Shown: piece after piece, positions 6,390 to 9,371 of the stretch
Layout of the letters: the number at the start of each line of letters is the position of its first letter
Position numbering within the stretch: the stretch's first letter is position 1
DNA from: a virus
Reading direction: 5' to 3' (one strand)
Virus record (IMG/VR): IMGVR_UViG_3300045988_174984
Location: 1-48,035 of that record
Length of the DNA stretch: 48,035 bases
The notes under the pieces: generated by a model
What the model saw: only the letters and a program-made list of their open reading frames with translations
What the model was told of the DNA's origin: nothing
Databases searched by the model: none
Made by a program: the position numbers and the translations under genes

Positions 6390-9371
6390 ATGTACTTGAT
6401 TTATGCCGACACGGAAACCTTCAGCTCGCAGGACCTCTCACGGGTAGGCGCGGCGCGCTACGCCGAGGACGCGCAGATCATACTTTGGAGCTACGCGGAG
6501 AACGACGAGCCGGCGAAGGTTTGGGACCGTGTGAGCAATCCGCAGATGCCCGCAGATTTAAAACGCATGTGGGAAAGGCTTTTCGCTGATCCGGACGCGC
6601 GGGTTGTCATGCACAACGGCATGAACTTTGACCGGCAGGTGTTCGCGTCTAACGGCTTTGGCGAAATCCCGGCCGAGAAGATCATCGACACGATGGTTCT
6701 GGCCTATGAACACGCACTGCCCGGGTCTTTGGAGCAGCTCTGCGAAGCCTTTCGTCTTGATGCCGACCATGCCAAAGACAAAGACGGCAAGCGCCTGATC
6801 CAGATCTTTTGCAAGCCTTTGCCGAAGAACTACAAGCTGACTCGAGCCACGCCGCAGACGCATCCCGCCGAGTGGGAGCGCTTCAAGAACTACGCGCGCC
6901 TTGACATCGAGTCTATGCGCGCGATTTACAAGAAGCTGCCGAAATGGAACGCCACTGCGCAGGAGCGTCGTTTGCAGGCGCTCGATGCCGTGATCAACTC
7001 GCGCGGCATGTGCATCGACTTAGAACTGGCGAAGGGCGCGGTGGAGACAGCGGCTCGGCATCGCACGCATCTCGCCGCCCGCACGCAGAAGCTGACGGGA
7101 GGCGCGGTATCGGCCGCCACACAGCGCGATGCGCTTCTTGAGTACCTGCGCACCGAGTGGGGGCTCGATCTTGCCTCGGCCACACGGGCGGAGGTGGAGA
7201 AGCGCATTGCCGAGCCGGGCATTCCGGAGCCGGTGAAAGAACTCCTGCGTATTCGTATTGCATCGACCAAGATCAGCGTGCAGAAATTTCAGTCAGTGCT
7301 GAACGCCGCCTGCGAGGATGGCCGTCTGCGCGGGTGCCTGCAGTTTCGCGGCGCCAGCCGAACCGGTCGATTTTCGGGACGTATTTTCCAACCGCAAAAC
7401 CTGGCGCGTCCGACGATGCGCAATGACGAGATTGAGTTCGCCATTGAGGCTACGAAGGGAGGGCTGTTGGATACGTTCTATGAAGACCCAATGCCCGTCC
7501 TTTCGAATCTTTTGCGCGGGCTCATCATCGCGCCCAAAGGGAAGAAGCTCGTCGTCGCCGACTACTCGAATGTCGAGGGGCGTGTGCTGGCATGGCTTGC
7601 CGGAGAGGAATGGAAGCTCAAGGCTTTTCGCGACTTTGACGCCGGAGTCGGGCACGACTTGTACAAGCTGACCTATGCCCGTGCGTTCAACGTCAAGCCG
7701 GAGACCGTCACGAAAGCGCAGCGTCAGATGGGCAAAGTGCTCGAGCTTGGCATGGGCTACGGCGGAGGCGCCGGCGCTTTCCGCACGTTCGCTCTCGCCT
7801 ACGGCATCGATCTGCATGACATGGCGGATGCCGTGAAGTCTTCGATCAGTCCGGCCATTTGGGCAGAAGCGTGCGAGTGGTACCCCAAAGCGCTGCTTGG
7901 CGGCTTCACCGAAGGTATGGACAAGGAAGTTTTCCTTGCCTGCGACTCGGTGAAGCGAGCTTGGCGCAAAGCCAACGCCCAGATTGTGCAGTTTTGGTAC
8001 GACATGGACGCCGGCATTCGGCAGGCGCTTATTGAAGGCGGGCCCGTGCGGGTTGGCCGGTACATTACCGTAGACAAGAAAGGAAATTATCTGCGTGTGC
8101 GCCTGCCTTCCGGCAGATATCTCGTCTACCCCTCCCCTCGCATAGATGACGACGGAATCAGCTACTTCGGCGTTGCTCAGATAAGCCGGAAGTGGGCGCG
8201 TATTCGGTCCTGGGGCGGAAAGTATTGCATTGCCAAAGGAACTCCGGTTTTAACACAAGAAGGATGGCGGCCGATCGAAACCATCACGGCGGCGGACAAA
8301 GTATGGGACGGCGTGGCTTGGGTTCAGCAAAGTGGAGCGGTTTGCAACGGCCAAAAGTCTTGCATTAAAGCTTACGGCGTATGGATGACGCCGGATCACA
8401 AGGTACTTACTACCGAAGGGTGGAAGGATGCAAAGGACTATTCGAGATTTAACCGGGTTCCGTGTCGGCTTCCTGACAGCGTTGCGCTGTGTTGGGACGG
8501 ACGGGAAGAAAGCGCTGTGGGAGACCCGCTGCGTTTGCGGGCGGCACAAAGTAATTCAGGGGACGGAACTTACGAAAATGGCAAAACACGGGATTACCGC
8601 GTCTTGCAGGTGCAAACGGGCGGAGACCATAGCACGGAAGAATCGGACACACGGCATGAGCAAACATCCCGCTTTCGGGGTGTGGCACTCGATGAAACAG
8701 CGTTGCGAGGATCCCAGGCACCCGGCATACAAAAACTACGGAGCCCGGGGAATAACAGTGTGCTCGGAGTGGGACCGCTCGTTCCAGAAGTTTTGGGCGG
8801 ACATGGGCGCTACTTGGAAAAAGGGCTTAGACCTAGACCGCATCAACAACGATGCGGGGTACAGCCGGGAGAACTGCCGGTGGGTGACACGGAAAGTGAA
8901 TTGCAACAATCGCCGGCGAACAAGGAAGGTAGATGGAAAGCCGCTAACGCAGTGGTCAGCCGAAACCGGAATCGGGTTAACCACGCTGTACTACCGCTTG
9001 GCGCACGGTGTTCCGAGGGGACAGCTGTTTGCCAAGCCGGACGTGTCGAGACGGTTTACGACCTCACCAACTGCGGCCCCCGCAACCGCTTCGTCGTCCT
9101 CGGCGAAGAAGGCCCTGTGATTGTTCATAACTGTGAAAACGTTACCCAGGCTGCGGCTTGCGACCTTCTGTGCGAAGCGCTTCTGAACTTGGAGGCTGAG
9201 GGTTATCAGACCGTGCTCACGGTCCATGACGAAGCGATTTGTGAGGTGCCCGACACTGCCGCGTTCAGCGCTGAGCGCATGGAAAAGATTATGTGCCGTC
9301 TTCCGAAGTGGGCGGCCGGACTGCCGCTTGCCGCGGCGGGGTTTGAATCGCTTCGGTATCGGAAGGACTAA
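6390..9371 (+). CDS. Family-A DNA polymerase with 3'-5' exonuclease domain, interrupted by an intein
   Basis: Contains Exo DTET, motif [12 protein letters not shown], motif B [16 protein letters not shown] and motif C VHDE. AAGGA RBS. Without the intein the protein is 691 aa. Confidence 0.9.
   Translation: [993 protein letters not shown]
6442..6454 (+). repeat. Motif variant copy GGGTAGGCGCGGC
   Basis: One mismatch to the core, inside the pol gene. Confidence 0.5.
7097..7107 (+). repeat. Motif copy 6 (core GGGAGGCGCGG)
   Basis: 11-nt core inside the pol gene, read as TGGAV. Confidence 0.7.
8226..9131 (+). mobile_element. Intein (302 aa) in the DNA polymerase, inserted just before the conserved QAAACD motif
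   Basis: Begins [14 protein letters not shown] (block A), has TPDH (block B), and ends [26 protein letters not shown] followed by Cys+1. The central ~210 codons in the pol frame are domain-less, R/G/S-rich sequence. Confidence 0.8.
8428..9120 (+). CDS. Homing-endonuclease-like ORF (HNH_3-like signature) nested inside the intein in the +1 frame
   Basis: 230-aa ORF with DLTGFRVGFLTAL, a CxC..CxC cluster and KHPAFGVWHSMKQRC..YKNYGARGITVC..LDRINNDAGYSRENCRWVT. This pattern is typical of free-standing phage HNH-type endonucleases. The frame differs from the pol/intein frame. Confidence 0.6.
   Translation: MQRTIRDLTGFRVGFLTALRCVGTDGKKALWETRCVCGRHKVIQGTELTKMAKHGITASCRCKRAETIARKNRTHGMSKHPAFGVWHSMKQRCEDPRHPAYKNYGARGITVCSEWDRSFQKFWADMGATWKKGLDLDRINNDAGYSRENCRWVTRKVNCNNRRRTRKVDGKPLTQWSAETGIGLTTLYYRLAHGVPRGQLFAKPDVSRRFTTSPTAAPATASSSSAKKAL

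Follow-up and report, generated by a model that had tools for sequence, protein, structure and literature searches.

Can one stretch of DNA serve an essential polymerase gene in one reading frame and a mobile endonuclease gene in another, and what keeps both of them readable? The question is raised by the family A DNA polymerase gene in the IMG/VR virus record IMGVR_UViG_3300045988_174984, of which we analyzed a stretch of 48,035 nucleotides (nt), hereafter the window. All positions are those of the whole window unless another locus is named. The polymerase gene is interrupted by a class-1 intein, and an open reading frame (ORF) for an HNH-like protein lies in the +1 frame between the two splicing halves of this intein. 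We consider it probable, at roughly 78%, that this is a mobile intein in a phage polymerase whose endonuclease gene has been overprinted in the +1 frame.

A polymerase intein with an open middle

The polymerase ORF matched the DNA_pol_A and DNA_pol_A_exo1 (3'-5' exonuclease) families in Pfam and phrog_17 (E-value 3e-114). A megablast search with the gene against GenBank phages returned no match, and its relatives were reached only by protein-level searches. In the polymerase frame (frame 0), translation from position 8226 starts with CIAKGTPV...TPDHKVLT. The sequence contains Cys1 (8226-8228), the TPDH motif of block B and a terminal VIVHN/C, after which the extein reads CEN (slashes mark splice junctions). 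The intein thus ends in His-Asn, and the Cys+1 nucleophile of the C-extein occupies 9132-9134. Cys1, TPDH, the terminal His-Asn and Cys+1 are invariant in alignments of the relatives, and there is not a single stop codon in the polymerase frame between 8226 and 9131.

The limits of the intein were confirmed by alleles that lack it. Two polymerases of 691 amino acids (aa), P0046 and P0049, are 98% and 95% identical to the window polymerase, and exactly 302 codons (993-691) are missing from both. On the contig of P0046 (L092) the polymerase gene has the same neighbors as in the window, a single-stranded DNA-binding protein and ThyX. The empty site reads ...WGGKG/VE, with ...TGGGGCGGAAAAGGGGTAGAGAACGCTACCCAGGCG... 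as the junction in L092, while the occupied site reads ...WGGKY followed by the intein. We take the insertion site to be the conserved xN.xQ..A.D helix of Pol I, just before the HDE motif. When the exteins were aligned directly (a MAFFT alignment of both alleles misplaced the C-extein), 12 nt differences were found in about 31 nt at the junction, compared with 6.3% over the N-extein. This recoded junction is likely the target of the predicted endonuclease or a co-conversion tract, as co-conversion or target-site immunity would be expected to crowd differences there.

The two ends of the intein form a predicted splicing domain and its middle does not. In an AlphaFold2 model of the frame-0 intein, pLDDT (predicted local distance difference test) was ~90-94 for residues 1 to ~88 and 86-92 for residues ~271-302, but only ~30 for residues ~91-269, where no secondary structure was predicted. 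The model's matches in the PDB were inteins or Hint-type domains at all of ranks 1-32, mostly mini-inteins (probability up to 1.0, E-values from 1e-3, TM score by target 0.4-0.5), and included Ssp DnaB, gp41-1, Mtu RecA, Npu DnaE and one Tetrahymena Vint domain. The C-terminal splicing half retains VYDLxNCGPRxRF...P(L/V)IVHN in all relatives. The frame-0 linker between the halves is rich in R/G/S/E/Q and had no family match in Pfam, PHROG or NCBIfam. Pfam searches of both frames, which the first-pass annotation of this sequence had suggested, also revealed no endonuclease fold in the linker. Together, the motifs, the Hint model and the intein-less alleles bear out that annotation's description of a polymerase intein with blocks A, B, F and G in the polymerase frame and a stop-free, domain-less middle.

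The same DNA holds a 230-codon ORF in the +1 frame. Its coordinates were verified as first annotated, and its TGA (9118-9120) lies 11 nt upstream of the last intein base. The third frame over this DNA contains ~20 stops.

Stop codons are avoided in the polymerase frame

We next determined whether the open frame 0 could have arisen by chance. A frame-0 stop arises in the overlap only where an endonuclease codon ends in T and the next one begins with AA, AG or GA. The nested gene of the window has 52 such at-risk junctions and T at none of them, while 16% of its remaining third positions are T. The 21 other genes of the window have T at 17.5% of such junctions; read in the same relative frame, stops account for 4.1% of their codons and the longest open run among 10,990 codons is 124. 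For the window alone, the probability of an open frame 0 is thus ~4e-5 by the junction test and 1.5e-4 for a 210-codon run. An initial estimate of ~1e-3 from base composition was right that the chance is low, and the value is somewhat stronger than that.

The signal is far larger in the family. Among 59 non-redundant members, none of 2,831 at-risk junctions carries T, where ~425-510 frame-0 stops would be expected if T were as frequent as in the adjacent extein (15%) or at the gene's own remaining third positions (18%). The third frame contains 4-23 stops per gene across these members, and in free-standing relatives of the endonuclease the corresponding frame is interrupted by 20 (L090) and 41 (L091) stops. 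These counts substantiate the earlier suggestion that selection keeps the precursor contiguous. Since the polymerase is essential, a frame-0 stop would be lethal, and T would be removed from endonuclease third positions before AA, AG and GA.

The nested gene encodes an HNH-like protein

The +1 product matched PHROG families that are labeled HNH endonuclease (phrog_374, E-value 2.9e-61; phrog_3377, E-value 7e-50). In BFVD it matched many free-standing phage proteins, whose names are HNH endonuclease, helix-turn-helix (HTH) homing endonuclease or AP2-domain protein, with E-values down to 2.6e-19. A phmmer search against the PDB returned no match. The AlphaFold2 model, built on a 54-sequence alignment, had a mean pLDDT of 88. 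It comprises a beta-sheet at the N-terminus that bears a Cys4 motif, a helical region, an HNH-like core and three C-terminal helices. In the Cys4 motif, C35 and C37 are invariant, and C60 and C62 are present in 53 of the 54 sequences.

The core shows beta-beta-alpha topology, with strands at residues 135-138 and 150-153 and a helix at 155-160, all modeled with pLDDT >90. The family profile aligned weakly (E-value 0.015) to residues 65-116 of I-HmuI (1U3E), a stretch that reads LVVDHKDGNKDNNLSTNLRWVTQKINVEN, and the motif residues N149 and N161 are invariant. The HTH module consists of helices 173-180, 184-192 and 197-200, and Pfam HTH_8, HTH_20 and HTH_28 match family members in this C-terminal part. 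The last residues of the ORF, which overlap blocks F and G, are modeled with pLDDT <50 and probably have no function in the +1 frame.

Upstream of the start codon, a purine run resembling a Shine-Dalgarno sequence (GAAGGG at 8415-8420 and GGAAGG at 8422-8427) leads directly into the ATG at 8428-8430. Run and ATG are formed from the intein codons for E-G-W-K-D, and the run may act as a ribosome-binding site.

An old and widespread arrangement

To place the window in context, we searched for relatives with an alignment of the intein region from distant homologues. This yielded 148 IMG/VR stretches and 10 reference-genome loci, of which we fetched 89 loci (79 from IMG/VR and the 10 reference loci). 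The latter include the chromosome of Parapusillimonas sp. JC17, an Arsenophonus endosymbiont, and Novosphingobium and Alicyclobacillus metagenome-assembled genomes (MAGs). The carriers are phages and prophages, and where hosts are named, these are mostly Proteobacteria. Proteins of 993 aa that are 94-100% identical to the window polymerase occur in dozens of independent assemblies, including one Sutterella wadsworthensis genome.

A tblastn search with the window endonuclease found a match in 88 of the 89 loci, at 35-92% identity, and the endonuclease frame is +1 relative to the intein in all but L086. Intein limits were set by tblastn anchoring, as a motif regular expression proved too strict and caught no more than 40 of 90 loci. 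In all inteins that allowed a complete translation (771-936 nt, most 843-933 nt), there was no frame-0 stop between the splicing parts. The nested ORF stops 8-68 nt before the intein end in nearly all loci. Its first ATG or GTG is at intein nt +202, as in the window, in ~45 loci and at +187 or +172 in most others. The +1 arrangement is kept across polymerases that are ~30-50% identical to one another. None of the fetched related loci has an intact endonuclease in frame 0; the comparison with homologues proposed in the first-pass annotation thus recovered intein-less alleles but no in-frame counterpart.

This bears on two ideas about the origin of the layout. Free-standing relatives of the endonuclease exist at ~40% identity (e.g. 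P0239 in L090), which makes the suggested origin from a free-standing endonuclease gene plausible. Conversely, the proposal that the locus is an intermediate on the way to an in-frame bifunctional intein is not supported, as the same +1 layout and start position are seen in 88 of 89 related loci, across diverged polymerases and in phage APSE-1 (see below). The overlap architecture is old, stable and widespread rather than transient.

Several variants were found within the family. The short inteins (771-795 nt) have endonuclease ORFs that lack the C-terminal HTH module. In L093, whose polymerase (P0045) is 88% identical to that of the window, a 79-nt deletion corresponding to window positions 8538-8616 removed the zinc-ribbon region and shifted the frame, which is set right for the polymerase by one extra nucleotide at the A5 run near 8822. 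L093 is a decayed allele in which the endonuclease has been destroyed and the polymerase ORF is still open; some of what used to encode the endonuclease is translated there in frame 0. L086, on the actinobacterial MAG contig CAKZRW010000020.1, has two related inteins in one polymerase gene. The one in motif B (GKT/C...HN/CVLGLGYG) contains an ORF of the same endonuclease family in the +2 frame (2370..3101 of L086), which ends 25 nt before the intein end and leaves frame 0 open. The other is a mini-intein at the site used in the window, from which the endonuclease gene has been deleted.

Some related polymerases of ~1,300 aa (P0066, P0067 and P0090) possess, besides the intein with the out-of-frame endonuclease, an additional canonical in-frame intein of ~300 aa at a third site, RTGRW/C... 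(columns ~343-645 of alignment A1).

Presence and absence of the intein among alleles

The intein is distributed sporadically. Alleles without it were found at 98%, 95% and ~57-68% identity to the window polymerase, and these are interleaved with intein-bearing alleles at 94-100%, 88%, 51-55% and 43-47%. Mean pairwise identity among 52 members was 36% for the exteins, 57% for the splicing domains and 51.5% for the endonuclease, although the higher conservation of the intein could partly be due to the variable extein segment that was compared, which weakens the argument for its mobility. In some pairs the contrast is pronounced: between L038 and L082 the extein is 30% identical, the splicing domain 74% and the endonuclease 68%. 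These comparisons suggest that the intein and the endonuclease gene may have spread horizontally as a unit.

Is the nested protein an active nuclease?

Several further results weigh against an active homing intein. That the precursor splices, that the nested gene is translated and that its product cuts DNA are predictions. The curated intein models scored below their cut-offs on the frame-0 intein (Hint_2, 15.4 bits against 28.4; Intein_splicing, 11.7 against 35.8; TIGR01445, 14.7 against 24.5), probably due to the long non-homologous middle and to divergence. The purine run before the ATG is a weak Shine-Dalgarno candidate, and conservation of the EGW residues could be all that it reflects. 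As to the nuclease, all 54 sequences, including the free-standing ones, have Arg138 where I-HmuI has its catalytic His (in D-H, at the end of the first strand); no HNH model of Pfam or NCBIfam matches any of the 54; and the window ORF itself matches nothing in Pfam or NCBIfam. A Foldseek search with the whole model found nothing significant in the PDB, probably because the model is elongated and multi-domain. Nuclease activity is predicted from PHROG labels and a weak motif match. The HNH signature of the first-pass annotation therefore stands as far as the beta-beta-alpha motif is concerned, which aligns to I-HmuI, but its first His is an invariant Arg. Fold and family are supported, the canonical catalytic residue is not, and the protein is best described as a putative nuclease.

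The invariant Arg and the lack of a Pfam HNH match are also what would be seen if the nested protein were no longer an active homing nuclease but a DNA-binding, domesticated or helper-dependent protein, carried by an intein that is inherited mostly vertically with occasional recombination. Long retention in prophages, for example in Parapusillimonas and Arsenophonus, would fit such a history. Conversely, purifying selection is strong over the whole protein, including the beta-beta-alpha core, and the free-standing relatives, whose behavior is that of mobile phage endonuclease genes, have the same Arg. The sporadic presence of the intein among close alleles and the arrival of a related intein at a second polymerase site also speak against loss of activity. 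We consider an inactive nuclease unlikely, although it is the alternative that survives best.

How the nested gene may be translated

Both frames overlap on one mRNA and no promoter-like site was found upstream of 8428, which would be compatible with a programmed ribosomal frameshift from frame 0 to +1 (and back) that yields the endonuclease within the intein instead of separately. However, 56 of 56 relatives displayed (of 59; three without a block-B anchor were skipped) have an ATG, GTG or TTG start codon, which takes one of a small set of equivalent positions, and the N-terminus that follows, (M/V)HHRAKD(I/L)TG, is conserved. There is no slippery heptamer near either junction, and the whole of frame 0 is held open by selection. 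Moreover, the +1 frame crosses blocks F and G to its own stop, so that a shifted ribosome cannot make the C-terminal splicing half. Frameshifting is therefore very improbable, and a separately initiated protein agrees better with the conserved starts.

Which frame is under selection in the overlap?

We looked at the pattern of substitutions to determine which of the two proteins is constrained. In the set of 59 members, codon positions 1, 2 and 3 of the endonuclease have entropies of 1.06, 0.95 and 1.52. This is a normal coding signature for the endonuclease, which makes the third position the most conserved in frame 0. Relative to L001-L004, which are 92% identical, the linker has 33-35 nt differences, with 21, 6-7 and 6-7 of them on endonuclease positions 3, 1 and 2. 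These changes alter 13-15 residues of the endonuclease and 27-28 of the frame-0 peptide. The same comparison for the N-terminal splicing domain gives 1, 2 and 10-11 differences on frame-0 positions 1, 2 and 3. Global pairwise identity of the linker was uninformative (30.3% observed, 29.7% after synonymous resampling and 29.9% after shuffling).

It follows from this pattern that the linker peptide has no detectable amino acid constraint in frame 0 and needs only to be free of stops. A true second coding sequence, whose linker peptide is functional (e.g. in tuning splicing), would account for the well-conserved length of the linker (most inteins being 843-933 nt), yet that length is explained by the endonuclease gene itself. 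The linker is predicted to be disordered, its first frame-0 position is the least conserved, and 27 of its 182 residues differ between 92%-identical relatives. Nor are synonymous sites of the endonuclease less free than those of the extein: at identical four-fold codons, 36.2% of pairs agree in the third base for the endonuclease gene and 36.0% for the extein. A functional linker is thus slightly less probable still than frameshifting. In the overlap, purifying selection acts on the endonuclease frame and not on the host frame.

Finally, two compensating frameshift errors in assembly or sequencing that moved an in-frame endonuclease out of frame can be dismissed, as we found nothing in their favor (the longest homopolymers in the linker are only A5, at 8731 and 8818), an artifact would not leave the wrong frame stop-free (P ~1e-4), and these frames are seen again in many independent assemblies, with 993-aa proteins that are identical or nearly so, and in 88 diverged loci, including the Sanger-era APSE-1 genome.

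A model for the overprinted intein

We propose the following model for the mobile intein with its overprinted endonuclease gene. Translation in the polymerase frame would yield a 993-aa precursor, in which the Hint halves (residues ~1-88 and ~271-302) would fold together around a disordered by-product loop of ~180 residues. Judging from motifs and fold, Cys1, Cys+1 and the terminal Asn would then splice the precursor by the class-1 pathway to give the 691-aa polymerase; that the essential polymerase is encoded solely as a precursor suggests that splicing takes place. Internal initiation at the ATG at 8428 on the polymerase mRNA would produce the separate 230-aa endonuclease. This would cut intein-less polymerase alleles at the insertion site, and recombinational repair would copy the intein and the endonuclease gene together, in keeping with the distribution described above.

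Comparison with known systems

The closest known counterpart is phage APSE-1 of Hamiltonella (NC_000935/AF157835), whose P45 is likewise a 993-aa polymerase with an intein at the same insertion site. The P45 intein has 306 aa (GGKS/CLAKGT...LIVHN/CEN; 2284..3201 of L094/L095). With a G+C content of only 45%, its frame 0 is open as well; the third frame contains 20 stops. As in the window, the endonuclease (P46, 52% identical) is in the +1 frame. P46 has been in GenBank since 1999, and its RefSeq label is 'HNH endonuclease'. Unlike the ATG of the window, its start is a GTG (VHHRAKDITG...), and it has been annotated from an internal ATG, with 140 instead of ~215 aa. The host clades also differ, an Enterobacterales symbiont for APSE-1 and Sutterella-type Burkholderiales for the window. 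Shewanella phage SFCi1, Caulobacter phages GB2A, RW, RLK and KcrB, and most APSE records match under 'DNA polymerase' alone.

The APSE polymerase intein is listed in InBase, and a literature search by the InBase names of this intein returned no match. Among the papers that we found, none calls P46 the out-of-frame homing endonuclease of the intein, and none names the PolA/APSE family as an intein with an out-of-frame endonuclease. The APSE polymerase intein and its differential loss have been mentioned (PMC7313666).

Inteins with an endonuclease gene in another frame or strand have been described before. They had already been proposed in 1998, according to citations of that work (Gorbalenya 1998). 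In a preprint, Gosselin, Arsenault and Gogarten (bioRxiv 10.1101/2025.01.02.630785) described terminase inteins of a few actinophages whose 'frame 3' holds an endonuclease VII-like gene, called the arrangement rare and proposed the invasion of an intein by a free-standing endonuclease gene. As in the window, the endonuclease ORF lies on the same strand in another frame between the splicing blocks, and the in-frame stretch is structureless. The terminase inteins differ in endonuclease family, in frame (3 instead of +1), in host protein (terminase instead of PolA) and in their Actinobacteria hosts, and they occur in a few closely related phages, whereas the family described here is deep and widespread.

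In cyanobacterial dnaX inteins, Phillips, DeSimone and Gogarten (bioRxiv 10.64898/2026.09.14.751524) found a LAGLIDADG '+2 ORF' with purifying selection on the overlapping frame. These inteins share with ours a broad but sporadic distribution, a disordered in-frame middle and the coexistence of intein-free and mini-intein alleles. Unlike ours, they carry a LAGLIDADG endonuclease as a '+2 ORF' and reside in a cellular gene. No free-standing ancestor was found for the dnaX ORF, whereas free-standing relatives exist for the window endonuclease.

Two other arrangements are comparable in part. The ShiLan domain (Arsenault et al. 2025, PMC11855218) is an HNH insertion, out of frame, in a phage methylase gene. 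As in the window, the inserted DNA hides an HNH gene in a second frame and has no stop in the frame of the host gene, but ShiLan has no splicing domain and is thought to stay in the protein, whereas the overlap in the window is flanked by intact Hint halves. In fractured genes (Dassa et al. 2009, PMC2677866), a free-standing-type endonuclease gene also separates the N- and C-terminal halves of a split intein, and 6-69 bp at its 3' end are shared with the intein part downstream. There the host gene is in two ORFs and trans-splicing is needed, while the precursor in the window is contiguous. A kinship with fractured genes, which had been offered as an alternative, is therefore a fair analogy but not a membership, since the host gene is unbroken (a single ORF of 993 codons) and not one of 88 relatives shows a frame-0 stop. 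In sum, the window intein is of a kind already described. Its endonuclease family, reading frame, host protein and phage group set it apart from the published cases, and its distribution is far broader.

Other features of the window

The features of the locus, together with those of L086, are listed in Table 1. The window contains a second intein, inserted in the P-loop of the terminase large subunit (...SGHGPGKG/APLD...FIVTHN/SFFVG...; 877 aa, ORF 40547..43180). It has an in-frame LAGLIDADG domain (Pfam LAGLIDADG_3, E-value 6e-4). With Ala as its first residue and with the residues W (EHLW), C (IRCVSV) and T (VTHN), it looks like a class 3 'WCT' intein. Its other two frames contain 12-13 stops, in contrast to the polymerase intein. 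The window also contains a match to an RNA family of the P1/P7 immunity type and a very long ORF with a weak LPD22 'large polyvalent protein' domain.

Table 1. Position, strand and supporting evidence of the features discussed; positions are those of the window, or of L086 where stated
Feature	Position	Strand	Basis
Family A DNA polymerase precursor ORF (993 aa, intein included)	6390..9371	+	Pfam, PHROG, homologues
Class-1 intein, 302 codons	8226..9131	+	Absent from 691-aa alleles; motifs
N-terminal splicing (Hint) half, intein residues 1 to ~88	8226..8489	+	AlphaFold2, PDB matches
Frame-0 linker, intein residues ~89-270, endonuclease-gene by-product	8490..9035	+	Disorder, substitution pattern
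C-terminal splicing half (blocks F, G), residues ~271-302	9036..9131	+	AlphaFold2, conservation
C-extein junction, recoded relative to intein-less allele (N side 8222-8225)	9132..9158	+	Extein comparison
Shine-Dalgarno-like purine run and ATG	8415..8430	+	Sequence
Nested putative endonuclease gene, 230 aa + TGA	8428..9120	+, frame +1	PHROG, AlphaFold2, BFVD, entropy
Cys4 zinc-ribbon-like motif	8530..8613	+	54-sequence alignment
HNH-like beta-beta-alpha core, L-D137-R138...N149-C-R-W...N161-R-R	8827..8916	+	Profile, AlphaFold2
C-terminal HTH DNA-binding module	8944..9027	+	AlphaFold2, Pfam
ORF tail overlapping blocks F and G, residues 211-230	9058..9120	+	pLDDT <50
Motif-B intein of L086, 278 aa	L086 2293..3126		
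Mini-intein of L086 at the window's site, 157 aa, endonuclease gene deleted	L086 3547..4017		
Terminase intein, 342-aa insertion	41852..42877	-	In ORF 40547..43180
C4 antisense RNA (RF01695)	3068..3151	+	Rfam, 49.4 bits (gathering 45), E-value 1.4e-6
ORF of 2,037 aa	22316..28429	-	phrog_9880 (unknown function), E-value 5e-164; weak LPD22; no other matches

Implications

We tentatively suggest that no family of overprinted-endonuclease inteins seen so far is larger or older, that the overlap is a stable state, that the endonuclease works with a non-canonical Arg-for-His beta-beta-alpha site, and that the same endonuclease family has become nested in related inteins at least twice, in the +1 frame at the window's polymerase site and, in L086, in the +2 frame at motif B. 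As a joint claim this is doubtful.

If all of this is true, the family would be a natural system in which a selfish gene shares its DNA with an essential one. The two interests in that DNA are clean and quantifiable: the host needs the absence of stop codons, and the selfish gene needs its protein. The resulting signature (0 of 2,831 junctions) is far stronger than in the few earlier cases. Gene callers overlook or shorten the nested gene, as with APSE-1 P46, and the splicing halves would tolerate a disordered insert of ~180 residues, which is relevant to intein engineering. APSE would make the system tractable by experiment, in aphids and Hamiltonella. The family spans full inteins, variants without the HTH module, a frame-repaired decayed copy, a mini-intein and intein-free alleles, and with this full range of states in one gene, the life cycle of an intein would become directly comparable.

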